The notes below the pieces were generated by a model. The model did not search any database. It saw nothing but the letters and a program-made list of their open reading frames with translations, and had not been told where the DNA came from. The position numbers and the translations under genes were made by a program. This document shows positions 1 to 29,384 of a stretch of 64,000 bases of DNA, in pieces (within the stretch, counting starts at the first letter, position 1; every line of letters starts with the position of its first letter). The DNA comes from Yuukianura sp. NJ FZ-2021 (lineage: Eukaryota), in contig CM102286.1 of the NCBI GenBank assembly GCA_046563655.1, forward strand, positions 9,982,001 through 10,046,000, read 5' to 3'.

Positions 1-28
1 AGCAGTCCAGGCAATCAAAAACAAAATA

Positions 29-1218
29 ATGTTGAAACATTTTTTCCCAAAAGAATTTGTTCTTGATCAAGAAAGGCAATTAATTGCAAATTTGACAAAA
101 CAATTTAGCTTTAAGCTGGAATTTACATCCCCATACCATCCAATAGCAAATGGCATGATGGAACGCTGCAATAAGACACTTAAGAACGGAATTGCAAAAA
201 CCGTTGATGAAAATCAAAAGAATTGGGATTTATGTTTGGAAAGAGCAACATTTGCTTATAATGTCCAAAAGCATTTTTCAACGGAATTTTCCCCTTTTAT
301 TTGTTATTTGGCAGAGGAGCTACTTTGCTAATAGACATTGACCTGCCGAACTTTGATTCCGATCAAGAGTTCGATTTGGAAAAATTAAATCAGCATACGC
401 ATGAAGCTCAGTTAAATTCTCATAAAAATCATGAGAAAAACAAATCCAGAGACAATAAGACTCGGAAGGAACAAAAATTTCAGATAGGCGAATTGGTCAT
501 CAGATCTAAGCCAATTCTGAAAAAGGATCTTAGTAAAGTGTATATTGCTCAAAAAGATGGGCCTTATAAAATAATTAGCGAAACTAGTGAGGTTAATTAT
601 AAAATTAAAAAATTAAACAGTCGTTCCAAGAATGTAATTGTTCATGTACGAGATTTGGAACATTATCACTCTGAATTTTTGCCGACTTCTGACAGTGAAA
701 GTGAAAGTGATCATGTCAGGGAAGTAGAAAGGAAAATTATGATCAGTGGTAACAATGGGGCTAGTGGAGTCCACATTACACCTTGTAGTCTGAGAAAGAA
801 GGATAAGAGTAGTACTGTTTCTTCTCCCCCTTCTAGTTTTCGTCACTCAGCTGTCAATGTAAAAAGTAAAACAGAGTCAACGTCTAATAAGCAAATTAGT
901 TCCGGCACTAAATCGCAGATTAGTGCGAAAAGTTACAGTTCCAACTCTAGGTCATTGTCCCGACATGCAAATCTTGCAAATAGTAGTGACAGTGAAGCCA
1001 GTTATGGTAGTGTGAGTCATCTGTCGGTTATAAAAACGACGAACAATGCACGGAGTCGTGTCATTTCATCTTCGTCCTCTTCTGAAGAAGAAACTCCGCT
1101 ACCTCCGGTTCAACCTCCGACAAAGGCCAATACTCCAACCAGAAGGTCAACAAGGCCCGGCACAGTTTCGACAAAGTATGGAGTCCCACTCTTAGTCTAT
1201 GGAGACGGAGACGGATGA
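29..1218 (+). mobile_element. Gypsy-type LTR retrotransposon 3' pol: integrase core and GPY/F region plus Ser-rich tail, frameshifted near 301-331
   Basis: FTSPYHPIANGMMERCNKTLK (rve motif), W...L...FAYN...H..T..SPF, KDGPYKI (GPY/F) and VHVRDL; split over ORFs 29..331 and 301..1218; followed by a PPT and an LTR. Confidence 0.9.
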
Positions 1219-1878: not shown

Positions 1879-2288
1879 TGAGACGAAGTCAACGGCCTTC
1901 AATTTTTCTGTTAGATTTCTTGGGCTTTTGTCTTAGTCTCAACTTTTGCAAAATCTAGTTACACTCCAAAATTAGCTTCTTTCTTAGCTTCTAAGAATAA
2001 CATACAACTCATTGTTAGCATATTCAGTTCCGCTGGACTTCTAACTCCTGACTTAGTTTTCCAGTTTCCGGTCTGAGCTCTATAAAAGGAAGCTCATTTT
2101 CCATGTACAAAGTCTCTTTCATTTTTATTCTTTAAAGTTACTAGAACTCTGGCATTGTGTGACTGAAAGAGTTCATTCACCTTGGAAATTTTGAAAAATA
2201 GAAGTTTACTTTCAATAGCAACCTGCTATTTCTAAAAGCTTGTAGTTGAAACTTTATTCTTTCCAAGAAAGTTAACGTTTTCACTACA
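1879..2288 (+). mobile_element. 3' LTR of the Gypsy element (~410 bp)
   Basis: Polypurine tract AAGAAGGGAGGA at 1866-1877, then TGAGACG...TTTCACTACA, with an internal TATAAAAG box. Shares TTTCCGGTCTG..C.CTATAAAAGGA and the TTTCACTACA end with the LTRs at 47469 and 49684. Confidence 0.8.
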
Positions 2289-2715
2289 ATGTGGAAGTTA
2301 AAGGAAAGTGGTGCGAAGACCGATGTAAGAACATTGGCATTGTTGTAGTGGACAGTGACGTGTATTTAGACGTATGATGAAGCATCTCCGTGAATGTTCA
2401 GTGATTGCAGTAGATATGGAGATGAGCTTCGACAAGAGATATATTGACAAATATATCTCCATTTTACAGTTAACGGTCTGTGGATCTGATTATCTCATCG
2501 ATACGTTCACGTTTCTGCATCTGTGTGATCAACTTAAGGAATTTTTTCACGACAGCGAGCATTTAAAAGTTTTTCATGGTAGCACCCATGACCAACTCGT
2601 TCTACAAATTCAATTTCAAGTTTTCATGGTAATAAAGATTGATTTTCAAATGGTTCGACTCGTTACAGTCAACTTACCTTACCTAACCTTACAGTCGACT
2701 CGTCATGACTACTAA
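2289..2715 (+). pseudogene. Rrp6/EXOSC10-like DEDDy 3'-5' exonuclease fragment
   Basis: IAVDME (ExoI), LQL...DYLIDT, KVFHGS..D..LQ..F (ExoII), matching the RNase D/Rrp6 pattern; truncated, frameshifted near 2370 and abutting the LTR. Confidence 0.75.
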
Positions 2716-2969
2716 CCGGACCAGCCACGACCTCCTGGCATCGACCGCCACGAGCATCCCAGCCCGACTACGTCACCCTCAACAGCGAATTTGAACAGCT
2801 GGTCGAGACCACGAAGGCCGACCCCCCCGTAACTTTGACCATGCTAGTGGTCAAAGTCGGCATGTGCAACCCGGCGGCTTAACCTGTTAGCTCTATGTAG
2901 TCTCTTTCTCTCTATTCCGTTCACTAGCTCTCTATCTCTAACATTGAACTCCGACATTGAACTTTCTGT

Positions 2970-3130
2970 ACCTCAACGTTATCGAATACATGTGGGCAGA
3001 CATTAAACGGAAACTCCGCGCACGAAACAGGAATATGCAATGAAGAAGAGGAAGAAGAACTGATAAATATTGTACAAGGGGAACTGCGCTGCTACAGCCT
3101 GGATTTGACCAAGGCACACTTCGGACACGT
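2970..3130 (+). mobile_element. Tc1/IS630-family transposase C-terminal remnant
   Basis: Manual translation LNVIEYMWADIKRKLRARNR fits the LNPIE.W..K catalytic-E motif. Confidence 0.65.
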
Positions 3131-3510
3131 ACAACTGTAATGGGCTACGCACTAGTGCTTTCATTGCACTCGTAAATGTATTCTTTGAATCACGTAGGTT
3201 ATCGCGTATGTACTATCGTCAGGACGACATGCACCTGGACCATATTCAAGTAGCCCCGATTGTTGTAAGTTTAAACCAATGAAACCGCAACTGTTACCGA
3301 CAAGTAATGGCACATGTTGTAGTTCGACGTTGGCCCAGACACAGGCTGCGATGGGGATGACGAAGACGAGGAGGACAACGGCTATACTCCTATTGATGAA
3401 TTAAACTATTCAAACATGCCGACGTTGCTGCCACGGAACAGCTAGGACGACGAAGAGTACGATGAAAGGAATGAAGACAGCCCTTATCAGGACATGCCTA
3501 TAATAGGTGA

Positions 3511-3804
3511 GAGAATAGACAACGGGGAGTCGTAAATCCTAACAACTTCAGGGAAAATGAGATTTCAAAAAGGCAAAAACGGTCATTTATTATAGCCTTT
3601 CCAGGAATCATCCTGGTTTCAGTTGTCGCTGGGGTTGGACTTGAAATCGCGGAAACAGAAACTGGAGTACAAGCCATTGTGGCTGAAGCGATGAGCAAAG
3701 CTGTTCGGAACCGTAAATCTCTCAAGCCTCGCTTAAATACAATCCCTGAAGAAGACTCTGACGAAGTAGAAGGAAAATACTGGACTGAAGATACACAATT
3801 GTAA
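3511..3804 (+). pseudogene. Envelope/fusion-glycoprotein-like remnant (furin site plus hydrophobic peptide)
   Basis: Open frame without an early start codon reads ...SKRQKR|SFIIAFPGIILVSVVAGVGLEIAETET...EDTQL*. Confidence 0.4.
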
Positions 3805-3943
3805 ACATATATTTTGTCAAGTTACTTTTTTTTTGTGAAAATTGTTAGTTTTAAGAGTTCTAAAAATAAATTTTTGACTCGTACCAAAATGGTATTTAAG
3901 CGCTTGTTTTTCATTCTAAATGTTTAGTCTGAAACTAGCAGCC

Positions 3944-4150
3944 ATGGGAGACTTTTACGTGACTCTTCAGAATGATTCTTCTTGAAATCATTATCCAGAG
4001 AACACAATTACAAATTCGAGAAGTCATTTTGCAGAGACAATTCGATTAGAATGTGTAAAATACGAAGTGGCACTAGTGGAGTGTACATATGTTCATCACG
4101 AGTATTTGCTTCACAAGGAAAGATGGCTTAGACAAGTTAGCAATCCTTAA
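3944..4150 (+). pseudogene. Polinton/Maverick minor capsid (penton)-like N-terminus with an in-frame stop
   Basis: GCCATGG start; MGDFYVTLQNDSS*NHYPENTITNSRSHFAETIRLECVKYEVALVECTY fits the recalled penton pattern FY.TL.S.SS..YP.NT...F...L...I.L....EVAL.E..Y. Confidence 0.7.
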
Positions 4151-5328
4151 AGTCGATTACCTCCCATGTCACTTTTGTTCAAAATAATATTGAAAGTTTG
4201 TTCTTTTTTTTTTTAGACAATCCAATACAGACCCGAACTTCCTAAGGATCGTCGTTAATGACTTTGTTCGACTTCGCCGCGGTATATGAAATTAAACCCT
4301 ACCTTTCTCTTATCACTCGCGACTTTGCGGATTACGACTTTTTTTGGCCACTATTAACGTCGAATTTTTTCTCGGTACGACCTCAACAATCGACATTTGG
4401 TGAAGAATTTTAAAACTTCCCGCAAAATTCTTGCAAGAAACAATGGAAGTTACCTTAGGAGAACGTTTTGGCAAGAATTTGACGTTATCCTGGAGGAGGC
4501 GTTTGCGAAGGAATCGTCAACGTCTACTTGGCATTGGTCTTGCATAATAGTGTGAGACACACAATGACCCAGTGTCAGGCAATCAATGTAAAATGAGGAT
4601 TACTTGATTTGGGATTCAATTAAGAAAAAAAACATTTCCTAGATTATGTTATCTATGCTCGTTAAAAGAAATTATTTCTCAATAAACATATTCTAAAATA
4701 GTTCACTAATGTAAAATAATTAAATTTCAATTAACTCAACGAAAATCGCCTAACATGGAATAAAAGTGATTTAACAATCCAAGAAATAAGTTTTTAGAAT
4801 CACAACCTACTTCACGCTTAATTAATATTCATTTAGTTCATTTTAGACATCAACAAACCCAGGAACATTTGGGGAATTTTAGTTACAAATAATTCGAAAA
4901 AGAAATGGCTACAATGTTGGCTGACTACAGTTCATCAGAAAAGTCAGACGATGGGATCACCATTGCGGCAAATCGGTTGATGCGTTGTAATCAATAAATC
5001 AACAATTCAACCTTGGGATTAGCTTTCAAGATCACTTGCGTAAGGCACATCAGTTAGTAGACTATGTGAACTAAGGCGAGAAAATTATTGATTTTTTCCT
5101 GACTCAATTAAACGCTATTGTTCCAGGTTGTGTTGTTTGTTCATCCCCTCTCGTGTGGATAAGGGAATGGCGTGGGATTCTATTTTTTAGAGGGGAGGTG
5201 GCTAGGGTGGATTTGGTAGCTGGCGGGAGGGGTGGAAAGTTTTGAATTTGAATTTGAGTGTTTTGGTTCTTTGAGTTTTTCGTGGTTGTTTTTTGTAATA
5301 GTTTTCGAGTTATCAATAAAAAGTTACA

Positions 5329-6410
5329 ATGGTTAAGATTTTTTGCGAATCAGCGCCAGTTGTACAACATAGATCTCGCGTGGATTTGGTTGCGTGTACA
5401 ATCAACGAGGTTGCTGCTGGTGCCGGTGAGGTTCGTTTGCCAGATTCATGTCAGGTGTGTGCCTTTTGTTCGCTTTTGGTTAGAAATTAAGAAAATATTA
5501 TTTTGTTATGAATATTGAGCGGATTTGCGTGTTTATGAAGATTAGTAAATACAGTACAGAGAATATCAGAGATTAATATTATTATTTTATGTATAGCGTC
5601 GTGGCCGTCGTGTTGTCCCCACTGTTAAAACCAGGAGTAGAATTTCCTCGACAAAGGTAACTTAACAGAACAGTCAGCGTGTATTATGTTCATCTCGATT
5701 TCAACTATCTCTGCATGTGAATAATTTCTGATTTGTAGGATCGACGTCGAAAGGGGAACATTTGGGTACCGTCAGATTCAAGTGAGTCATCTGATTCTGA
5801 AGAGTCACTTGCTGCAGATCCTGACGATCTTGTGCCTTATCGTCCACCTCAATTAAGAGGTGTTAGAATTGTTGGAATCGACGGTATTGAGTACGATATC
5901 GTCGGCATTAGAGAAATTGTCCAGGACAAAAAGGGCAATGAGGTCTACCAAGTAGATTTCGGACCTTTGTACTCTTCCGACAGGTAAGTTCGCCCCTTAT
6001 TATTTTTTTTAAATAAGCTTTTTTTTTTCAAAAAAAAAAGTTGGTTGGGCTGGGTTTATTTTCGTGTGTTTTTTTAGTACATTGTGATGCCCGTCTTTCC
6101 AGTGACTATTATTATTTTCTTTGCAGATACCAACTCGATCCCCTTAGGTCATTGTAGCAACTTCAAAGAACAAAGTGACACATGCGGAGTCCATAAAGTG
6201 CGTCAAAGGCGGGGCCAATAGAACAATGCCTAATATTATGACACTGCAACAGTATTACATCATTCAGTCTGGGTTTCATTTCCAACCGAAGAGGTTCTTT
6301 TAAAGTGGTACCACTACGTTTCAATTCAACATTTCGGAGACTTGCAGCATGTCGTCATTCGAGAGTAAGTAGATTTTTTTGTCCAACCGTACTGCCGGTA
6401 CTGGTTTGAC
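5329..6410 (+). CDS. Spliced cargo gene in the mini-Polinton: basic N-terminus, acidic Ser linker, chromodomain-like segment; last exon frameshifted
   Basis: Exons 5329-5454, 5597-5656, 5739-5983 and 6127 onward have GT-AG introns and join in frame: MVKIFCES...DSCQ|RRGRR...STK|DRRRK...SDSSESSDSEE...EYDIVGIREIVQDKKGNEVYQVDFGPLYSSDR|YQL. The 3' end is approximate. Confidence 0.6.
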
Positions 6411-6472
6411 ATGTCGAATTGTTGCATACAGAGTCTGTCGCCGCACAGCGTGTTAATGCATTTCGAAAGCGA

Positions 6473-7194
6473 ATGTCGGGGGAAGGGAGTAGCGACGAGC
6501 CATCTTCCAGTAAAAGGTTGGATGCCAAGGCGTTGCTCTCGGGTGGTCAGGAGAAAGAACCAGAAAAGAACCCAGACGCTGCTGACAACACTGAACAAGA
6601 ATTTTCTGAAAATTACTCAAATTCAGTCGAGCCACTCGTGGATTATATGGAGAAGGTGGCAAAGGTCGAGTACAATGAGAAGAACCAGGACATCTTTTTC
6701 AACGATGATTTTCTGGTCAAAAAGTTTGGACACACTGTCACATTTCGCATGCGTCTTGGATTCGACAACTACAGCCAAGGTAAGCAACAGTTGAACAAAA
6801 TGTTCTCTTGTTCCGTCACAGAGGTGTGCCAGACTGCCCAAAAACACTACGCATCGAACACAGGGGTGCATCCGCCGTCATGGACTTTGAGATGATCCCG
6901 GGACTCATCGGCATCCTCTTTGAACTGTTTCTCGAACACGGCGGAGCAGTCAGTGACTTGCCGGAAATTGAACTCACTCACAAAAAGAACATTGCAAAGC
7001 TTCAGGTCCGAGTCGGTAACCATACGCGCTTTACGGATTGGAAGGATTCGATGGCGGAATACAAGGAGGTGGAGAACAAGAACTACGGTCCAGAAGGAAC
7101 AAGATGGTTTCGCGCAAAACACAGTGACTTCAAGACAACCCAAATTGCCACTGACCGAGTAGTCTTGGACCTTGATGGAGTCATAAGACAGTAG
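6473..7194 (+). CDS. Orphan cargo protein A (frameshift near 6810-6830), paralog of B
   Basis: ORF 6419..6895 (ATG at 6473) joins ORF 6808..7194; segment LRIEHRGASAVMDFEMIPGLIGILFELFLEHGGAVSDLPEIELTH. Confidence 0.6.
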
Positions 7195-7489
7195 ATGCAA
7201 CCTTTTCAACATTTCAACTTGTTACAACTAAACATGTTAGAAAAACAGTACAATTGTCTACTAGTGCGTTTAGTATTGTATTTGTAAAATTGTCTAGCGA
7301 TACACACCATATTAAACAATAGCAACTTTCTCTTTCCTTACTGTCTCATTCTGTCTTTTTTGGTGAAATTTGATGAAAAAAAAAATAAACACTCTCAAAA
7401 AAAAAACAATGTGAAGAGAAAGCAGTCTGTCAGTTTGGGGTGGAGCGTGGCGTATGAGTTTAATTTGTTGGGGTCCATTTCATAGTTAG

Positions 7490-8108
7490 TTGGTCAGAAG
7501 CATCAGCGGTCGCCTCGTGCAGTCTGCAACTGGAATCCAGCACATCAACATCCACACTCTGTTCAATAGTGTCATTTTCGAGTCCACTCTTCTGCTTCAA
7601 ACAACAATGGCTGCAAGGAAACCCATCAGTAGGCAAACGAGACCTCATCCAGTGAACGACGTTGTTATTGTGCTGGTTTAGCAAAAGTGGCGAAGACAAA
7701 GCGATCAATATACGTCAAACCAGGAGCGCCACTGCCATTGACTTTGAAGATGTGCCGAAACTCATCGGATACCTCTTCCAGATTTACATGGAGAATGGTG
7801 GTGATTCGAGAGAGTTACCACGCATGCAGATTACACACGACACGGAACGGCATCTCATGACGCTGAAGCATGAATATGCCACTTCAGCCTTCCGGACATT
7901 CTGGAGCTGTCGCGACAAGTCGACTCCTCACGCATGGCAGGTAAAACATGACCAACAGGAAATGGAGGAAATGCCACAAGACACTGAGGCTATTGACGAA
8001 CAACAAACCAGACCTGAGTATCTTGAAACCGTCTATGAGACTACTGTCTACAACAAGCGAAATAGGAAGACTCTTGCACTCGAAACTGTCCACCAGTATT
8101 TCTTTTAG
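7490..8108 (+). CDS. Orphan cargo protein B (frameshift near 7665), paralog of A
   Basis: INIRQTRSATAIDFEDVPKLIGYLFQIYMENGGDSRELPRMQITH aligns without gaps to protein A (DFE..P.LIG.LF....E.GG....LP....TH). Confidence 0.6.
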
Positions 8109-8977
8109 ACTATAATAATTTTTACGATTGATATTAAAATTTTCTTATTGAATTAGAGGATCTCAAAATGAGTCAATTAAATTAAGCGATTCTTCCTGGA
8201 TATTCTGTCATACATATTCATCTTGTTTGATTTAATTAAAGACAAAGTCTATAACAAGGCGATGGGTTAGAATTTGGAATTTAATAGGTAAAAAAGAAAA
8301 ATACTTTTTTTTTGCATAACTCATTTTTTCCTTTTCAAAACCTTGTTGGATTTTTTTTTGAATTGCAATAGAAGTTTTTTTTTTTACATACGACACGACA
8401 CCATCTACCAATCCAAAACGGGTCAAAACCAAATAGACATACAACGCCATCTTTCACTCACAACTAGAACTTTCCACCCCTCCCGCCAGCTACCAAATCC
8501 ACCTCCCCTCTAAAAAATAGAATCCCACGCCATTCCCTTATCCACACGAGAGGGGATGAACAAACAACACAATCTGGAACAATAGCGTTTAATTGAGTCA
8601 GGAAAAAATCAATAATTTTCTCGCCTTAGTTCACATAGTCTACTAACTCACATCTAACGCGATTAATCAACATTATTGCGGCTCAGAGCGCAGTGATGTT
8701 CAAAATCCTTGCCAATTATTTTGTCCAGCCCAATCCCGTTTACACTATGGATTGAGAGATGAATCATGACTCATCAATCAGTCGTTGCTCAGAAGGTGTT
8801 AGTCCGGCAATGTCGAAGGCTCGTGGAAATTACATAATAACAGGTCCCACCCTTGGGACGGTTAATAATTGTATGTTAAGTAAGTAACAATCGGTTTCGT
8901 TCGCCTTCCAATTTGAAAGAAACTGACTTCAGAAAGATGCTCAGAAACTTGTAATTAACTTACACGAGTTGTACACT

Positions 8978-9035
8978 GTTAATGGGGTACCACATTACTT
9001 GGCGTCGTTAATGGGGTACCACATTACTTGGCGTC
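8978..9035. repeat. Perfect 29-bp tandem duplication
   Basis: GTTAATGGGGTACCACATTACTTGGCGTC occurs twice in a row. Confidence 0.95.
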
Positions 9036-9059
9036 TGTACCTGTGATGCCAATTCAAAA

Positions 9060-9407
9060 GGGATCTACAAAATCCGTTAACTTTGTTGGGAGGTGTCAAC
9101 TGCTCGAAGGATTAAAAGCAAATTCGAGATTGGAGATGCTATTGTTACCACTGGAAGAAAACGTACCCGTCCGTCACCCGGACGTGATAAGGTGCAATCA
9201 TTTGAAATCGATCGAATTTTGAGAATCATTTCCGACTCCTACAGAGTTCGGAATCGGGCTCCTACATTCAACTTCGTTTTCAGAGTTTCGTATGATTTCC
9301 CAGAAATACGTTGCAGCAAGCGAACGTTCCATAAAAAGCTAAAAGGAATGAACTTGGAGTACAAACGAAAAAACAGGAGCAGTGTTAGCGTTACATACGC
9401 TGTATGA
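9060..9407 (+). mobile_element. Tc1/IS630-superfamily (Sailor/DD82E-like) transposase N-terminal DNA-binding remnant
   Basis: STARRI...TTGRKRTR...ID.I.RII...Y.....PT......CSKRTFHKKLKGMNLEYKR fits the HTH-region pattern. Confidence 0.6.
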
Positions 9408-10510
9408 TAAATGTAAAATGTTTCTGTTAGGAAGAATGTAAAAATTCCATGGCTAGAGAACAGCGTTTAATTCACGTTTTTTGATAACAAGTGCAAATAT
9501 ATTCGCTGAACTTTAGAGTACAACAAAGGGAATGAACGGTGAAGTCCACATTTTATTATCTTAATTCTAATTACTGTTTCTATTCGTTAGTACACAAGTC
9601 AAGCCACAACCGAGATGCTGGGCTACCGATTCTAGAATTTGCAGCTACTGTCAAGGGTGGAAAAAACGAGATGGAAAACTCTAATGTTAACGAGATTGTT
9701 CATGAACAAGAAAACACTATATTAGCAACCCCACGAGACCTGTTTATGGGAAACTGCAGCCCCGTAGAAACACGACTAACGATACGGTCGAAAACCAATC
9801 CAGTAAAAAGCTAACTCTAACGTAAACGATTGTACTGATTTGATAAGAATTTTTTCCCCAGCAACTCATTATGCAGATCTAACGCCCGATCCAGAAGTGC
9901 CAAAATTCACAACCACTTGCGAAATTTCAACTGAGTGTGAAATGACCTTAACAATAGCGGACCAGACTTCGGCTGGCGATCCTGTAAATGTGGAAGGTTG
10001 TGTGATGTCGCATGATCCGATGTGTAAAATTTTAAGAAATGACGGATGGCCAATCTTGATGCTTTCATAGAGATGAGAGAAGCGGGATTCGATTTTGAAG
10101 TGTGTGGTAGTATCGATTTTTTCGGAATACTCCAGGGTATCTGTTGGTTGAATGATGCTGCGGACAATTCCCAAACGTGCTCCGCATTGATCATTGGAAT
10201 TATCATAATAATCAGTAATACTTAACGCCAAGTCCTTGCATATAATATGTTGTGGGTTGATGGGGTTTGTTTCTATTCTATAAGCGTCTTACACATTTTT
10301 GCTTTAAACTACTATTTGACGTTTGCACTTACTGGATTGAACGACGCTTACTTGCTAAAGCTCTCCTGTTGATTTGGAATTGACTGATACTTTTGCTGTT
10401 GTCAAGGTAATTGTTAATTATTCTGTTATTCAAATCATAAGTTGTAAAATTGAACTTTAACTTTGTGTAAAATGGCATAGAGTCTTGCATCACCCTTTTG
10501 TTTTAATTAG

Positions 10511-11063
10511 AATGCGGCTTTCTTTACCAGCAATGCCCGTTCCCGGTTTTCTACCATACTTGCGCCATAATTTCCCCGCAATTTCTACCCATTGGCTGCC
10601 TGCCAGCAAGAATGAAGCCAGCGCGTGGAAAATATCAATCACTGAGACCAATGTACAATTAACGAATCCGGACAATATAATTTGTACCGATAGGGGTACG
10701 AGTTTAGGGTTCTTAGATCAAATCTTACATTCGTGGTATGATGATTTGCATGTTAAGGCTCGTTTTGAAGACGGGGATACCTTTTTGCCTTATGAATATG
10801 CTCCATTTCAACAATACAGTTTCTTATTGTATTGGTTTAAAGCTATGGCCTCTGAAAACTTATTTACTGAACGGGAGATCTTTATTTACCGGACCTGGTT
10901 TTACATTGATCACTCATGGGTCCCAACCCGTTTTGATGGTATATTGTACTTGTTAGATGTACATTTTTTATCGTAGAATACTCAAAGACATGCATTATAA
11001 ACAGAATCTAAATTTAAAGGAGTTATACAGGTTAAGGATGAATACTACGGCTGTTGTGTATAA
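10511..11063 (+). pseudogene. Orphan gene C, paralog of D
   Basis: Exon after acceptor TTAATTAG; GFLPYL..F......WLP, LH..DL, DGILYLLDVHF; premature stop at 10976; a later TAA overlaps AATAAA near 11061. Confidence 0.5.
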
Positions 11064-11126
11064 ATAAAGCTTTGTGGTACGTCTTAATTATTCTTATTGC
11101 GTCTTTTGTCTGTTATTTTGGTATAC

Positions 11127-11255
11127 ATGCGTCCATTTTTAATGGAAAATCTTTCCGAGTTTGCAGTTATCCTGAGGTGCAAATTTTGTGGTAGGGAATA
11201 CACCAATTTCCCAGATTTCAAACAACATAAACTCGACTTTCATCGCCATCTTTAG
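11127..11255 (+). CDS. Single C2H2 zinc-finger microprotein (37-42 aa)
   Basis: MRPFLMENLSEFAVILRCKFCGREYTNFPDFKQHKLDFHRHL*: exact C-x2-C-x12-H-x4-H spacing with aromatic/hydrophobic core residues; below the ORF-track cutoff. Confidence 0.55.
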   Translation: MRPFLMENLSEFAVILRCKFCGREYTNFPDFKQHKLDFHRHL

Positions 11256-11336
11256 CCTTCGTCATTACTACGTAAGATTAAACAACCTATTGGTTGTCTG
11301 ACGAGTTAATTATAGTAACCTATCAAATATCGTTCT

Positions 11337-11645
11337 ATGGAAAGTGGACTGTCCCATGCCGTAAAAAAGGTGATCATGGTTGATGCTATGACTCAGACGG
11401 ATGAGTCTTCGATGACCATGGATTCTACCTCCAGTGTGTCTGACGCTGGAACTACACCCTCTATTGCGACACCCTTGGATTTGGCTTTAGAAGACATATT
11501 GTCGGATGAAGATTTTAGCGACGATGATGTTGTATATTTGGCTCATTTCCCTGCCTTACGAACAGCTAGTGCCTATACACGCTTCTGTCCTAGTGACGAA
11601 AATTCAATGGATATTTATGCCTCAGACGAAAGTCTAGATAACTAA
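11337..11645 (+). CDS. Small acidic disordered protein with a SIM-like motif
   Basis: ATG ORF of 102 aa, D/E/S/T rich, containing SDEDFSDDDVVYL; the stop codon overlaps AATAAA. Confidence 0.4.
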   Translation: MESGLSHAVKKVIMVDAMTQTDESSMTMDSTSSVSDAGTTPSIATPLDLALEDILSDEDFSDDDVVYLAHFPALRTASAYTRFCPSDENSMDIYASDESLDN

Positions 11646-11960
11646 ATAAAGAGGTAATCCGCCTTCTGGAAATTTTTTTGGCACATGGCTGTGAAAGGTT
11701 GATACGGAAAATTTATTTCTTCATCTAATGGAAGTTGTCTTGTTGTGTATCCTACGTTTACTAAGAATTTCTGAAAAAGAACTTGTAAGTTAGTAGCAAC
11801 CCAGCTATTGTTCCTGATTATTCGCTGAAAGTAATTTTGGCCTATTGAATTAATTCTCTATTCCGTATTGATCGGGTATAACAGCAGAAAGATACGTAAA
11901 TTATAATTAACTAACCTAGTATTTTTTAGGAATAAAATATTGATTGGTTGCACTTTATAG

Positions 11961-19116: not shown

Positions 19117-22100
19117 TCAATTCTGAGAGTTGGGAGTAGAATTTAGAGCAATGTTCGCATGTACGCTTTCAGCATTGTCTTCATTGTTGCGATGAAGTTT
19201 ATCATCCCTTTCCCCAATTTGATCACAAGGTTCAATACAACATGAGGAAGACCGTACATTGATTTCCAATGTAGTCTGAGTGCAAGGTTGCGCACAAGTT
19301 GTGTGCAGTATCGTAGCAGTGTCGTCTTCACCAGAGTTACGAGATTCTGATTCACTGGTCTCATGACTATCCTCGCTTACCTCAGGTATTGTTGAGTCCA
19401 TTTCTTCGTTAATTGAGGAATCAGCAGCGTTTCCCTGACCATCATTTACATCAATTTGTACTTTTGGTCTTTCTTCGATGCTTTCGTTTGCTTCTGCAAC
19501 TTCGCTTTCACTTACATGCTGAAAAGATGAAGACAAACATTGTTGCGGCTTGCGAATGCTGAGAATCTGGAACAATGAGTTAACAAGAAAAATAAGTCAA
19601 TTAGTCACACAATATTTTGTACCGTGATTGCTTCTTCTAGACGATGTAATGGAAATGAAACCTGAAGGGTCTAATTAATGCAAGAAGCCGCATTAAATCA
19701 TAGAAACTTCGCGATCTTACGTAGTTTAAGACGCCTTCGTTAAATGGACAAAGAAAAAGTTCAGAAGTTCAAATTCTTAAACGAAAGGGGTTTGCTTAGT
19801 TATGAAGGAAAACCAACTGAAATATTGAGATCGTTACGATATTTTCTAATTTTCAACTTACTTCGGGTTTTAACGGAGACGGTAGTGAAATTTCCTGAAG
19901 AGCTGGATCCTCGGCGTCAATATCTGTAGGGACCTTCCGCGTCTTGAATGTTAATGGTGTTCGGCGCAAAATATCCTCAATCTGCGACGTCGTCTTTTCC
20001 TGTTGAGATTTAGATGGAAAGTGAGATCGTAGCATTAAAACCTCTCTTCATGCACAGAAGTTCCCCATTTCAAAGGAAGCATAGAAATAAGGATTAAGAG
20101 AAAAATCATTCCAGCGAAAGCTTTATGAGCACTTCAAATACCTTAAAGACATTGCTAATGCAAATAGGTAAGTAAGAGAGTTTGAATTTGCATTTAGACG
20201 TCTCTTGATTGGCCAATAGAAGAATGATAGTTAACTTCCCCGTTGAACCTACCCGTTCGATTACTTGCACGAGGTACTAAAAGTGATTGCTTACCCGGTT
20301 TTCAGTCATCTTCCTCTTCAGAAGTGCAATATTTTGAAGCAAGTTGGTATGGCGAACTTCGATGTCACTCAAAATATTTCCCATTTCTTGCATCAAATGA
20401 ACTGACTCTGAAAAGTGCATCTCCCAGCTACCGGGTGGTACAGCTTTACCCGAAAAATATAGTTCGAATTCATCTTCCGGCATACTCAAAGATTCTGCAT
20501 TCAGGCCTTGAATAAACGTCACAGCACAGCACTGCAGAAAAATAAAGTAAGTTAGAAACTAGCTTGAATAAAGTAAGTTGATGTCTATTGAATCAAAACT
20601 AAATACTGGGAAGTTAGGTGTGTCCTTCATTATATATAGCGAAAATTAATAGTAGTGTTTTATTCTCGTTACCAAATTGGTGAAAAAATAGCCAGCTTCT
20701 CCGCTCATCAGTCGAGATGCATTGCAGAATCTGTTGATGTAGTTGATATTGCTCTGCAGTCGCGTGGGATTCGCTTTGATTACGATGTAAATGAGAGCTG
20801 GAAGAAAGTCATCAGCAGAAGTAGGACCCTGTTTTGATTTCCCCAAAGCCTTCATAATACGCGTACAACATTGAGAGATGTGATGCAGTTTGTCCTGTGG
20901 AGCTTTGACAGAATCGACTCCAATAATATCTACAATGAAAATACACAATTACTCAAGTACAGTAAAACAATTGAAGCTTTTGACAGCATCAACAGAAATG
21001 CAACTCTCCTGGAAGAAGAAAATAACCCTCTTCATTCACGTTTCACATATCAATCACTAATGCTAACGTAAAACCATTCACAATAAATTATAGTGAATTA
21101 TCAAATCTATCTAGTGGATTTTCCAAAGTCGGAATCGTTCTTGTTACTATTCCTAGCAACGCAACATGAAAAAAAAACAGTGGAGCTTTTCTACTGAGCG
21201 ATCAGCGAAAAAAATGAGCGTTATTGCAGAAATCTCACATCGCCCTAACGCTCATCGAAATTGGTTGAACAATAAAAGAAGGTAAGAAACTAAAACAGTT
21301 AAAAATATTGTAATAACTTTGTTAATTACATTGTTCAAACAATCTCCAATGTAGTTCGGGAGATGTGAGATTTCTGCAAAACGTTTGATTTTCTCGCCGA
21401 ACGCTGATCGCTCAGTAGAGAAGCTAAACTGTTTTTTTTAAAGTTAGGTTTCTAGGAATAAATAGTAGTCTTGGAACAAGACCAAGACTCTTGGCCAGAG
21501 AGACTAATTTGGAAGACAAATTGTAATGAGTTCAATTTAATTACACACCACTGCAACAACTGTTTAAAAATGACCAATGGGAATGGGTACCCGCAAAACT
21601 TGGAGAAAAAAAAACTAATACTTCTGGTAAAAAAATCCGACTTATACCACCCGAGTTGATTCACAAACGAAACTTAGTACATAGTTGCGTAATCTAATCA
21701 GAGAAGTGCATACCGTTGATGGCGGCCCATATGAAGTCTCTTACGTCCTTGTCCCGCTCATTTAGGCGGATTTCTAGTCTGTCGGTACCGATCCAATTCA
21801 GCTTCCTAATTCTGTACAAAGAAACGCAAACCGAAAAGTTATACGTAATGTCCATCAGCTGAATTCATATTTTTTGGTTTGGTATTTATCAAAATTTTAG
21901 GCACAAAAATGTTCACTGACTCACTTTGTTTGTAGTGCTAAATCCTTCGCTTCGTCGTCCATATTAGTAAAACTGGGCATGAACAACTCTTTGTAAAGTC
22001 CAATCGTGAAGTACTTCTCAATTAGATCCATTAGTTTATCCTTCTCCTCGGGCTTTACGCTCTGATAAATAGGGACGGCGTCCACTTTGCGTCTAAAGTT

Positions 22101-23726: not shown

Positions 23727-24144
23727 TTCACTATATCACTATTCACTAAGTAGTGCTACATATGTTCTTTGCATCATCGAAAAGCTTACCAGGGTAACTT
23801 TAACTTTCTAGGTTACTTGACGTTGATGGTGGTCAATCGTTTTTAACACTATCCGGTTTTGCTATTCTCAGTTTACTAGCTTGACCTCGTCGTTTATTGT
23901 TTGAACCAAAACACTTGTGTACTTGTGTGTTGTTTTGTACAACTTGTAAGTTGTGTAGTACTTGTACTTAGTGTGCTTGAACGTGTACTTGTACTTTTTT
24001 TTAGTAACTTTCTAGTTTCCACCAGTTCTACACCTTTCCTTAAGTATCTGTCGCTCCTTTGTGTAAAAAAAAATAAAATGAGGTTGAAGTTTATGAGGGG
24101 AGAAAACCCGCAATATTTCTCGACAGAATTACATCTGGATTTCC

Positions 24145-24454
24145 GGTCGAAGTAAACTTTGAGGTCCTCCGTTGTACCCCCAAATTCCATTGTACCCCCA
24201 CATTATATTCCGTGGTGGCAAATTCAAAAAAACAACCAATCACCCCCTCTTCTGTTGATTTGTTCAGTTGCGCATAGATTTATGAACTGTACCCCCCGTC
24301 CTTAGTCAGGTTTGTTTAACCTAACCTAACCTAACCAACAATAGAGGGGGCGATTTGTTGCTTTTTTGAATTTGCCGCCACGGATTATAATGTGGGGGTA
24401 CAAGACAATGGAATTTGGGGGGTACAACGGAGGACCTCAAAGTTTACTTCAACC
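24145..24454. mobile_element. GG-terminated palindromic MITE (Merlin-like signature) nested in the left TIR
   Basis: GGTCGAAGTAAACTTTGAGG / CCTCAAAGTTTACTTCAACC; 8-bp TSD GGATTTCC/GGATTTCA; the right TIR of the host element shows the empty site. Confidence 0.8.
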
Positions 24455-25179
24455 GGATTTCATGATGTGTAAAATTCCACACATTTGGAATAGCAAAAAC
24501 GCAACAAAAATCCAGATGTATGAAATTAAGCACGTCTCAAATCACAAAAACACAACAGGAATCCTGATGTGTCAAATTTGGGATGTGTGAAAATAAAAAT
24601 ACAACACAAATCCTAACATGTCAATTTGAAATGTATCTCGCCTCATGCGCTTTTTCAGATGTGTGAAATTGAGGCGTCTCAATTCCTCATGTGTCAATTT
24701 GAGATGTGTTTTTGGTGCAGGTGGTTGAACTAAGGCACAGTCCAATCCGTTGTATACACCCAGTTCATTTACCCTCACAACTATCAAAAATTGTCCCCGA
24801 CTTCAGAATTTGAAATTTGTTTCACATTTATTGTTAACTTCTGCTAATGACGCCGAAATTAATTAAACGCTACAATTATTAATCGTAGCACCATATCAGA
24901 AAAAAATTATGCAGTTTTTCTACCGGACAAACAGCTGAAAAGAACACGTTCAAAAATCTCACATTCCAAATTCTTTGAACAACAATAGCAAAACGAAACG
25001 TTAAATAATTAAAATTAACCTAAAACAGTTTGAAGATGGCTGAAAATTGATATAATCACTACCCTGAACGTTATTGGCTTTATATGTTTTTATTATACTG
25101 TGAGGTCTATTTAAAAGCAGACACCACACCCCAAAATTGTTGCTACAGGCAACAGCAAAATTTTTGTTGGGGCTTACTG

Positions 25180-25445
25180 TATATAGTATATATTTATAAT
25201 ATATAGTATTTATTTGTAATATATAGAATATATTAGTAATATATATAGTATATATTCATGGTATATAGTATATATTTATAATATATATAGTATATATTTA
25301 TAGTATATAGTATATGTAGTATATATATTATAGTATATAGTATCATGGCATATAGTATATATAGTATAGTATATATTTATAGTATATAGTGTATAGTATA
25401 TATTCATAATGTATATAGCATGCATTTCTAATATATAGTATATAT
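25180..25445. repeat. Degenerate (TATATAG/TATATT)n simple repeat
   Basis: Visible run of tatatagtatata units. Confidence 0.9.
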
Positions 25446-26202
25446 CCAAAGTTTATATTTTTAATTTTTTTAGGTTAAGCAAGTCTAATTGGGAGAATAG
25501 AGTTGATACAATGGCAGTCGATACAATTGAATTGGCACAATGTTGTGCTTCCCATAAGAAAGACGCAGAAGGCGTAATGATGAGAGCGGTTAGTTATTAA
25601 ATAATAAAGTTACTAAATATAGTTGAGTTAAATGTGTTAACCATTGAGTGGATTGGCGTAGAGTTAGGAATTAGAATATCCAATGTGGTTTCGCCGGATG
25701 CACTCTTGATTTACTTCAACCAAATGTGCACAAAAACACATCTGAATTTAGACATGAGGAATCGAGACGTCTCGATTTCACACATCAGAAAAAACATATG
25801 AGGGGAGATACATCTCAAATCGAGACGTTAGGATTTCTGTTGCGTTTTTGGTTTCGCACGTCTCAAATTTCACACATCAGAATTCCTGTTGTGTTTTTGT
25901 AATTTGAGATGTGTATAATTTCACACGTCTGGATTTCAGTTGTGTTTTTATATTTCCAGATGTGTGAAATTTCACACATCAGGAATTCCAGAAGTAAATC
26001 TGTCGAGGAATATTGTGGGTTTTCTCTCCTCATAGAAGTTACCCCTTGTTGCCGTGAATGTAAGTTACAAACTTGTGGTATGTGGTATTGGTTACAATTT
26101 GTAACCTATACCACAAGTGTGGAAATAATGCAACAAAAATTTGCATACTAAGATTTGATCATGTTTTGGGTTTAATATGACATGACGTATCGTCCACTAA
26201 TC

Positions 26203-29200
26203 CATGGAGGGAGATGGGTGGCAAAATTATTTTAAATTTCCGCGCGTTAAAAAGCGTTTCGTGCATAAAAACAACATTTTTCGCCGATAAAAACAATGCG
26301 CAAAAAGTATTTTTAACTGGCGTAACGTTTATTGCTAACCTAACCTAAAACTCAATTGCAGGAAAAATTCAATTTCAGTAATTGATTTTTCCTGCAATTG
26401 AACTTTGTTTTTCTGCAATTAAATTTGGTTTTTCTGCAATTGATTTTTTTGTTTTTCTGCAATTAATTTGTTGTTTTTCTGCAACTAGAAGTATGTTTTT
26501 ACCATTTCAAGGGTTGTTTTTACCATTTTAAAGTTTTGTATTTTACCATTTTGTATTTTACCATTTCAAACTCTCGTCTTTTACCATTTCAAAGTTTGTC
26601 ATTTAAAAGCTTGTTTTTCGCCAATTAATTGCACTAAAAGTCCCATATAGCCTAGGTACACGTGCACAGATGGGCAAAGAAATTATTCCTTATTTTAATC
26701 GTTTAATTTATATTAAGTACATCATAAATATAAGAATAATTTATTAAAATTAATGCATAATTTTTATAATTAATTAGCTTAATATTTAAGGCGCCGATTG
26801 AAGTAAAGTTTAACGACCGAAATGGTAACACCACGAAATTTCAAAATTTCAACGATTCAATTGATAATTTCTGCCTTAAAGGGCAATTTGCAGTGACTCT
26901 TCTAAAAGTCAATTGCTAATTTCTGTCTTAAAGTTCAATTTGAAGTAACTCTTCTAAAAGAGACAAACTAAAATAACCTAACACCGCGCCTTAGTCGTGG
27001 AAAAATAAAAGGGAATTCAATGAATGAAACGCTATAGAAGCTTACCCTATAGATGTGTTTCCTGTACTGTTTCGTTCATTGAATTCACTTTCCCTTTCCT
27101 ATTACCTAACACCGCACCTTAGGTGGAGGGAATCGAATTTGGAAACTGTCGCCGCCCAAGGACAGTCACCCATACATTCCGGTACTACGGGTAAGCTCAC
27201 GAACTCCAACTCCAAAAAACTGTAAGCAATATGCTAAGGTTAATAACTAACACCGCGCCTAAGGCGCGGGAAAGAAAAAGTAAAGTCAATGAATTAAATA
27301 TGACAGACTTAATTAAACGGAATTCGAAAAATATGTTGCCAGCATTCTTTAGCATAGGCGTATAGAATAGAGTGACGGCAATGCAAATTTTCCCACACAG
27401 ACCTACAAATGTTATCACAGAAATGTAGCCATTGTAGCGACGCAACGCAGCCGCAGGCGGCTACGATTAGTGTCTACACTTACTCTTGTTAAACCTTACT
27501 TCAACCCGCTAATGCCTTCCTCTTTGTCTTGTCAATGTAAAAGTTCAAAATGCTAAACAGTCCAGCATTGTTTTTAATAACACTAATGCGCCTTAAAGAT
27601 TAAGCTAATAAATTATAAAAATTATGGATTAATTTTAATAAATTATTCTTATATTAATGATGTACTTAATATAAATTAAACCATTAAAATCAGGAATAAT
27701 TTCTTTGCCCATCTGTACACGGGTACCTAGGCTGTATGGGCCTTTTAGTGCAATCAATTGGCGAAAAACAAGCTTTTAAATGACAAACTTTGAAACGGTA
27801 AAAGACAAGAGTATGGAGGGGTAATAACGACTTTCACTATTAATTATTTTTATCTTATAATTAAAAAAATTTCCTTAAAATAAAAAAAAAACTTTACAAA
27901 AAGAAAAAAAAGTTCCGGGAATTTTTTTTTTTTGTATTTAGAAAATAATTTTTGTAATTAAAAGTATTTTTCTAAATTAGAAATATTTTTTTATATTTAA
28001 AAAAAAAGTTCTTTAAAAAAGTATTTTTTAGTTAAAAAGTTTTTTTTCATATAAAAAAAAACTTTATTTTTGACGGAAGAAATATAAATATGGAGCAAAG
28101 TGAAAAAACTTTTCAAAAGAAAAAAAGAAAAAATTTTTGTTTGGGATTGTGTCGTCATAAGCCAGGATTCGGTGGTCACTTGTGTTCTCCCAATTGCAAA
28201 CCACGCCACTCCACTGTTGCCGGTATTGAAATTCAGAGAGACACGCCGTTGACAAGGCAGTTTTTTCTCGTGCCAGGCAGCAGGGGTCGGTGGGTGGTCC
28301 AAATGCTCGGTGGACAATAGACTTGCATGGAGTGTCAGTAGCGCTAGTCTGGCGGAAAGAAGGAGAAACACACGATTATCAGCAATAAAAGGGGCCAGAA
28401 TTGATAACGCTGAAAAGAAAAAGATGTTTCTCATTCTTTCCACCAGACTAGCGCTACCAACACTCCATGCAAGTCCATTGTCCGCCGGACATTTGGACCA
28501 CCCACCGACCCCTGCTGCCTGGCACGAGAAAAATAAGCAATGACGGCGTAAGTTCTGTTTGAATTTCAAACCGGCAACAGTGGGCTGGCGTGGTATGCAA
28601 TTGGCAGAGCACAACTGACCACCGAATCCTGGCTTATGACGTCACAACACCAACTTCAGAAAGAAAAAAGTTTTTTCTTTTTTTCATTTGAAAAGTTTTT
28701 TTTTCACATTGCTCCACATTTATATTTTTTCGGTCAAAAATAAAGCTTTTTTTAAATAAGAAAAAAACTTTATAACTAAAAAATACTTTTTTAAAGAACT
28801 TTTTTTTAAATATAAAAAAATATTTCTAACTTAGAAAAATATACTTTTAGGTACAAAAATTATTTTTTAAATACAAAAAAAAATTTTTTTCAAAACTTTT
28901 TTTTTCTTTTTGTAAACTTTTTTTTTATTTTAAGGAAAATTTTTTTTAATTATAAGAAAAATAATTTATAGTGAAAGTCGTTATTGCCCCTCCATACAAG
29001 AGTTTGAAATGGTAAAATACAAAATGGTAAAATACAAAACTTTAAAATGGTAAAAACAACCCTTGAAATGGTAAAAACATACTTCTAATTGCGGAAAAAC
29101 GACAAATTAATTGCTGAAAAACAAAAAATCAATTGCAGAAAAACCAAAAATTAATCGCAGAAAAACCAAATTTAATTGCAGAAAAACAAAGTTCAATTGC

Positions 29201-29384
29201 AGGAAAAATCAATTACTGCAGTTGAATTTTTCCAGCAATTGAGTTTTACTGCAATAAACGTTCCGCCAGTTAAAAATACTTTTCGCGCATTGTTTTTACC
29301 GGCGAAAAATGCTGTTTTTAATGCGCGAAACGTTTTTTAACGCGCGAAAATTTAAAATAATTTTGCCACCCAACTCCCTCCATA
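26203..29384. mobile_element. Non-autonomous long-TIR element, IS3EU-like (outer)
   Basis: CATGGAGGGAG.TGGGTGGCAAAATT.. / ..TTTTGCCACCCAACTCCCTCCATA; ~590-bp TIRs; TSD CTAATC/CTCATC (5 of 6 match). Confidence 0.8.
27812..28996. mobile_element. Foldback (almost fully palindromic) IS3EU-like element nested in the right TIR of the outer element
   Basis: TATGGAGGGG...CCCCTCCATA with arms of ~550 bp around a centre near 28400; perfect TSD CAAGAG; the empty site is visible in the outer left TIR near 26570. Confidence 0.88.

Follow-up and report, generated by a model that had tools for sequence, protein, structure and literature searches.

The 64,000-nt stretch of DNA analysed here (contig CM102286.1 of GenBank assembly GCA_046563655.1; hereafter the window) carries a 3,597-bp element at positions 5052-8648. 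The element was inserted as one unit with a 6-bp staggered cut of the target, and the insertion is recent. It seems to be a lone copy rather than one of a multiplying family. Its genes are in decay, with two of three reading frames interrupted in this copy and, in one sequencing run, a stop codon added to gene 2. The ends are of the kind described for Polinton/Maverick elements, and there is perhaps an even chance that the element is a lone, decaying, internally deleted derivative of the Maverick type.

Contig data over the region were available from four DNA runs. X1, X2 and X3 are from one sample (organism A), while X4 is from organism B and another study. Contigs of all four runs were placed on positions 2052-11648 at an identity of at least 90%. 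Forty of 299 contig differences were listed, and the substitution tallies given below refer to those 40.

Ends, target-site duplication and empty site

The element is bounded by two terminal inverted repeats (TIRs), delimited by arm alignment and by the count of the terminal 25-mer. The left arm (5052-5241, + strand) is 190 nt long and starts AGTTAGTAG; its inner third is G-rich. The right arm (8468-8648, - strand) is 181 nt long and ends CTACTAACT. When aligned, the arms are identical at 180 of 181 positions, with one substitution and one 9-nt gap, and their similarity ends at the inner edges of both. Each arm holds one copy of the terminal 25-mer, and these two are the only ones in the window (expected from 100 shuffles of the window: 0.00). 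The end motif can be written AGT-T-AGT-AG // CT-ACT-A-ACT, giving AG...CT termini with two AGT units split by one T. Between the right arm and the last gene lies a non-coding, AT-rich sub-terminal stretch with runs of T and A (8109-8467). No second copy of the ends or of the interior was found elsewhere in the window by tblastn or blastn.

Both arms are flanked by the sequence CACATC (5046-5051 on the left and 8649-8654 on the right). The match between the flanks does not extend to a seventh base, and the target-site duplication (TSD) is a perfect 6 bp. The near-identical TIRs and perfect 6-bp TSD described in the initial annotation are thus both present. Upstream of the element, a + strand reading frame stops at a TAA codon (4994-4996) inside the sequence AATAAA (4993-4998). 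The element therefore lies in intergenic DNA, approximately 55 nt past the stop codon and polyadenylation signal of the neighbouring upstream gene.

Proof of insertion comes from X4. A single 351-nt contig of this run (depth 3.64; shorter side 130 letters) joins position 5045 to 8649, and the same six letters fit on either side of the junction. This contig skips 3,603 bases, which is the length of the element (3,597) plus 6. The gap thus comprises the element together with a single copy of the duplication, which identifies the entire block as inserted DNA and the 6-bp duplication as genuine. An alternative parse with a 5-bp duplication and one unpaired C at one end yields an identical empty site; the symmetric 6-bp parse is preferred as the simpler of the two. 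X1, X2 and X3 have no empty-site contigs. X4 also has contigs from the filled state, including one that bridges the right end into the flank (8012-8778, depth 6.98) and one that spans gene 1 (5311-5991, with 20 other letters and 25 gaps), so organism B has both the filled and the empty state. The depths of the empty and filled states sum to 10.6, compared with 5-7 in neighbouring contigs, and the empty site may accordingly be either an allele or a paralogous locus.

If there were no transposon here, chance inverted repeats would flank host genes and a deletion allele would mimic the empty site. The empty site is indeed represented by a single contig of low depth (3.64) that could derive from a paralogous locus. 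However, the gap equals the element plus exactly one 6-bp duplication, the ends begin right at that duplication, and a 6-bp match would arise by chance once in 4,096 cases. The arms are also 99% alike, while the rest of the window has no resemblance to them. An origin without transposition is hardly credible on this evidence.

Gene content and copy number

The interior contains three gene-like units, all on the + strand, with GT...AG introns of approximately 40-140 nt. This agrees with the three same-strand genes of the initial annotation, although the models are drawn from sequence alone. Gene 1 (5329-6157) has an intact frame of approximately 153 amino acids (aa) in four putative exons (5329-5454, 5597-5656, 5739-5983 and 6127-6157). 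Gene 2 (6349-7194) has exons at 6349-6364 and 6432-6779 (348 nt) and a third exon whose one strong acceptor (exon start 6822) leads into a stop codon at 6893-6895. The conserved C-terminal domain of gene 2 lies in a different frame (6784-7194), and the gene is interrupted in this copy. Gene 3 (7607-8108) begins with an ATG at 7607 and reaches a stop codon at 7679-7681; its conserved domain is found in the frame 7656-8108, which is not that of the ATG, and the interruption lies near position 7660. The conserved domain of gene 3 is a paralogue of the C-terminal domain of gene 2, with 18 identical residues among 47 and E = 4e-13.

At the frame-break sites of genes 2 and 3, other contigs vary in length by amounts that are not multiples of three. 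An X2 contig covering 6154-6858 shows no difference from the window, which indicates that the letters of the window are real. We read genes 2 and 3 of this copy as frame-broken and their relatives elsewhere as probably intact. At position 6686, the sole X1 contig (depth 56.3 of 56.3) changes a glutamine codon of gene 2 to a stop codon. Ten of the listed substitutions fall in the gene 3 frame, five of them synonymous and five nonsynonymous. Within the conserved domain (7799-7907), all four listed substitutions are synonymous, a hint that the gene 3 family is or was under selection. Contigs of X2 and X3 skip 82 nt at 7406-7489 and one X4 contig skips 84 nt at 7578-7663; the spacer and the beginning of gene 3 vary in length from copy to copy. 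The donor at 5983 (gene 1 exon 3, phase 2) fits in frame with an acceptor at 6348, immediately before the gene 2 ATG. Given this in-frame join, genes 1 and 2 might be transcribed together or even form a single gene.

The three genes are orphans within reach of the libraries searched. None of five exon pieces and none of the 62 stop-to-stop pieces of at least 35 aa that overlap the element reached the Pfam cut-off, and seven of the 62 gave sub-threshold rows (13.7-15.6 bits). No signal of a polymerase, integrase, capsid protein, ATPase, protease or transposase was obtained from these 62 pieces with Pfam, in keeping with the earlier statement that no pPolB, integrase, ATPase, protease or capsid motif could be recognised. 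The gene 2 C-terminal domain had no match among 1.84 billion representatives. No relative was scored for gene 3 (three candidates of near length), for the N-terminal open reading frame of gene 2 (20 candidates) or for gene 1 exon 3 (52 candidates, all longer proteins, as those of near length were not searched). In sequence searches of the PDB, gene 1 exon 3 had no match with an E-value under 0.65 and the gene 2/gene 3 profile gave no rows, and a protein atlas gave no usable match to gene 3. The fold model of the domain shared by genes 2 and 3 was unusable, with a predicted local distance difference test score (pLDDT) of 37.6.

Gene 1 exon 3 was considered as a possible chromodomain and this assignment was rejected as unsupported. 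Its atlas scores (0.80-0.82) were under the lead level of 0.9, and the model had a pLDDT of 58.4. The best Foldseek match was the CDYL2 chromodomain, at an E-value of approximately 1. Chromodomains scored Z 2.2 with VIA-align, below unrelated rows at Z 3.3, and Pfam Chromo was not found.

Contig depths in X1 were used as a crude estimate of copy number. The contigs within the element at 5212-6858 (depth 56.3) and 8128-8497 (59.9) have depths of 56-60, close to those of the left (3987-5116, 52.3) and right (8584-11167, 59.4) flanks (52-59). A further contig at 7431-7750 has a depth of 60.2. By these depths, gene 1 and both sub-terminal stretches are single-copy at an identity of at least 90%. 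In the bin 4932-5251, the mean depth of 37.3 equals (185 x 52.3 + 40 x 56.3)/320, so nothing further is placed on the core of the left arm. In the bin 8452-8771 the mean is 70.1, and subtraction of the two unique contigs leaves approximately 99 over the 86-nt arm core. This is approximately 1.8 times the single-copy depth, which corresponds to two arms and no third.

The depth in X1 climbs across the interior, to 84 (6852-7491), 114 (7492-7811) and 184 (7812-8131). The raised depth over 6852-8131 indicates one or two extra copies, elsewhere, of the segment from the gene 2 C-terminus to gene 3. These extra copies (6829-8128) stop short of the end-proximal sequence. Just left of the flank of the element, contig depth is raised 5- to 30-fold at 3652-4291 in all four runs, with many variant contigs; this region is a multi-copy repeat.

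The initial annotation had regarded the element as a satellite-like unit. On that account it would belong to a mini-Maverick family with working accessory genes, for which a helper polintovirus repeatedly supplies replication, integration and perhaps packaging in trans. The ends and duplication are of the Polinton type, as such a family would require, and the short structure is found under both organism labels while the empty site persists, which speaks against a very recent accident in one line. The synonymous changes in the conserved domain of gene 3 (four of four listed) also hint at past or present selection on the gene family. The X1 depths, however, are those of one gene 1, one of each sub-terminal stretch and two end arms, and the additional copies of the gene 3 region end before the sequence next to the arms. 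No helper was seen within the 64 kb. As for an accessory module of its own, three gene-like units are present, but two of them are interrupted in this copy, and X1 adds the stop codon in gene 2. We consider a satellite family improbable.

Relationship to Polinton/Maverick elements

The case for a Polinton/Maverick affinity is built on three features only: a duplication of 6 bp, ends of the AG...CT form that contain AGT repeats, and the length of those ends. In the available part of a study of intact vertebrate Mavericks, the ends are 5'-(AGT)2//(ACT)2-3' or (AG)3//(CT)3, the duplications are a perfect 6 bp and the inverted ends measure 46-1,447 bp (PMC8097293). The accessible portion of a nematode survey gives Mavericks a size of 13-25 kb, an end length of 100-1,500 bp and a duplication length of 5-8 bp; a 6-bp duplication was among the features tested for (PMC10748475). 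The present element has the 6-bp duplication, AG...CT ends with AGT repeats and inverted ends within the 46-1,500 bp that these portions of the two sources cover (roughly 50-1,500 bp as a general range). Of the signature cited in the initial annotation (AG...CT termini, short AGT repeats and a 6-bp TSD), the duplication holds and the termini read AG...CT with an imperfect AGT repeat. With the end length taken in, the match to the published features is good though inexact.

The element differs from autonomous Polintons in its size (3,597 bp rather than 13-25 kb) and in lacking pPolB, an rve integrase, a packaging ATPase, a maturation protease and a capsid gene. No Polinton core family was found in the rest of the window among 64 of its 73 pieces of at least 90 aa, the other nine being covered by the element scan or lying in the palindrome near 28 kb described below. 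The only integrase in the window is that at 2-1215, which has Ty3/Tf2-type domains and lies outside the element.

As far as the available text of one preprint goes, in nematode Mavericks the integrase is separated from one end by 2-5 kb of cargo genes that contain introns, whereas the core genes have none (10.1101/2022.07.12.499685). The present element shares with this region, so far as that text describes it, intron-bearing, lineage-restricted genes directly inside one end. By analogy, its interior would resemble a nematode Maverick cargo block standing alone. Polinton remnants in C. elegans provide a second comparison. According to the accessible part of the report, they include ends-only copies and copies with the polymerase and an end but no integrase, and they vary among strains (PMC11414722). 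They are likewise partial, Polinton-derived structures that retain ends; as that part describes them, however, they are fragments at rearranged loci rather than compact end-cargo-end units with a duplication of their own, and their ends are 744 bp long and species-specific, compared with 190 and 181 nt here (PMC11414722). A compact end-cargo-end derivative of a Polinton was not found in the literature searched, which was available in part and did not take in the founding Polinton papers or Repbase; this is no proof of absence.

The data show the element to be a non-autonomous DNA transposon that arrived at its site as a single 3.6-kb unit, through strand transfer of the integrase or transposase type with a 6-bp stagger. 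Non-autonomous derivatives are routine among transposons. As the element has no recognisable enzyme gene, the enzyme must have been supplied from elsewhere; we infer that it would be a Maverick-type integrase acting on the AG...CT ends. In the model proposed here, a Maverick genome would have been internally deleted, with nothing left of it but the ends and, as accessory ('cargo') block, a set of lineage-restricted genes with introns. The deletion may have occurred before integration, in a defective mini-genome that used the integrase of a helper, or in place soon after integration. The initial annotation had read the intact TSD and fresh TIRs as a sign that insertion took place at about the present size, but a later internal deletion would leave both untouched. 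Organism B shares the short structure and yet retains the empty site, which is slight evidence that the short form arose early.

Defective viral genomes with internal deletions, from linear DNA viruses with protein-primed replication such as adenovirus, retain both terminal repeats. They are similar to the present element in that origin-bearing ends are kept, core genes are lost and a helper is needed, but they occur free in infections, while the element is chromosomal and apparently a single integrated copy. A stronger version of the model would have the element as a mini-polintovirus genome, carrying cargo alone, for which a helper Maverick provided both replication from the terminal repeats and integration in trans at this size. 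The lack of a donor copy would in that case mean that the element was delivered from outside the genome. This version is improbable.

Several points weigh against an internally deleted Maverick. Nothing ties these ends to an actual Polinton, and the end sequence had no match in the metagenome_contigs and viral_contigs collections. Relative to the published vertebrate (AGT)2, the AGT repeat is imperfect, and that motif may not be the one used in this host. Replicative movement is expected to leave the donor copy behind, but a third end arm is not seen in the X1 depths. The depths are contig depths and not read counts, and copies below 90% identity would be invisible to them. The exact structures of the gene models are uncertain. 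Finally, introns of the host are short and end in tatag, tacag or tgtag; with such intron ends, the comparison with nematode cargo may not apply and is an analogy only.

A lone copy without a donor sits poorly with replicative transposition and is what cut-and-paste movement would naturally give, which leaves a non-autonomous cut-and-paste element as the main alternative. Such an element, from a known or unclassified family with 6-bp duplications, would have captured host DNA in the manner of Pack-MULEs. As it moves by excision and reinsertion, one copy per genome would be expected, and the X1 depths are those of a single copy with exactly two end arms. The relatives of 6829-8128 that occur elsewhere without the sub-terminal sequence (depth 114-184 over 7492-8131) fit with capture from host genes, and the introns of the element resemble those of the host. 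Further, no Polinton gene was found in the window, either in the 62 element pieces or in the 64 of 73 others.

The family comparisons argue in the opposite direction. Typical duplications are 8 bp for hAT and 9-10 bp for Mutator elements, neither of which fits the 6 bp of this element, and no matching transposase was found. Pack-MULE-type captures and CEREP1A of C. elegans are similar to the element in being kilobase-sized, with inverted ends, no transposase and interior relatives elsewhere in the genome. CEREP1A is 3.4 kb long and, in the portion of the report available, is attributed to hAT-type enzymes (PMC11414722). IS3EU/GingerRoot elements have a 6-bp duplication and TA..TA or TG..CA ends (PMC10045372); the duplication length fits, but the element ends in AG..CT. 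Dada elements have a 6-7-bp duplication and no inverted ends, and insert into small-RNA genes (PMC3706591). They do not fit the 190-nt inverted ends, and no Rfam family was found in the window. A MITE, a transposable element of miniature size with inverted repeats, would be small, non-coding and present in many copies, whereas the element is 3.6 kb long, has three gene-like units and is at single-copy depth. Of the families checked in print, only Polinton/Maverick unites all three features, namely a duplication of 6 bp, AG...CT termini and an inverted-end length of approximately 190 nt. A cut-and-paste origin is possible but less likely, and an internally deleted Maverick is the explanation we favour.

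Surroundings and significance

The rest of the window contains a number of repeats. The 3' part of the pol gene of a retrotransposon with long terminal repeats (LTRs) lies at 2-1215 (+ strand), with the integrase core rve_3 and, after it, Integrase_p58_C and a Tf2-type SH3 domain, and is truncated where the window begins. A 29-nt unit is perfectly duplicated in tandem at 8978-9035, 330 nt right of the element. A host gene of the Rabex-5 type (A20 finger, DUF5601 and VPS9) occupies 20.6-23.1 kb; the host is probably an animal. A long intron of this Rabex-5-like gene holds a 322-nt palindrome (21148-21460, 72%), which is probably a small foldback or MITE-type insertion. A large, AT-rich cluster of nested palindromes (GC 0.32-0.34) extends over 24131-29383. 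Within it, 27811-28997 is its own reverse complement (84% over 1,223 nt), the arm at 26204-26577 matches that at 28996-29383 at 87% and further pairs lie at 24.1-26.0 kb. This cluster is foldback-like repeat DNA. Two pairs of direct repeats, 47468-47937/49683-50153 (473 nt, 96.6%, spaced 2.2 kb) and 58223-58606/60673-61056 (384 nt, 99.2%, spaced 2.45 kb), may represent either LTRs or sequence recently duplicated in tandem. The GC skew around the second pair is strongly negative (-0.29).

The element is no evidence for a new kind of system. As it stands, it is a well-delimited, recent, gene-carrying, non-autonomous transposon with an empty site, and it makes a good marker and test case. Should it turn out to be a mini-polintovirus genome, it would be the first satellite or defective-interfering Polinton to be described. 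If its ends are shown to be those of a Maverick, the element would be a natural example of two ends sufficing for integration by Maverick machinery, and of an accessory block able to travel without the viral core. Both points would bear on how such elements shuttle genes between species.

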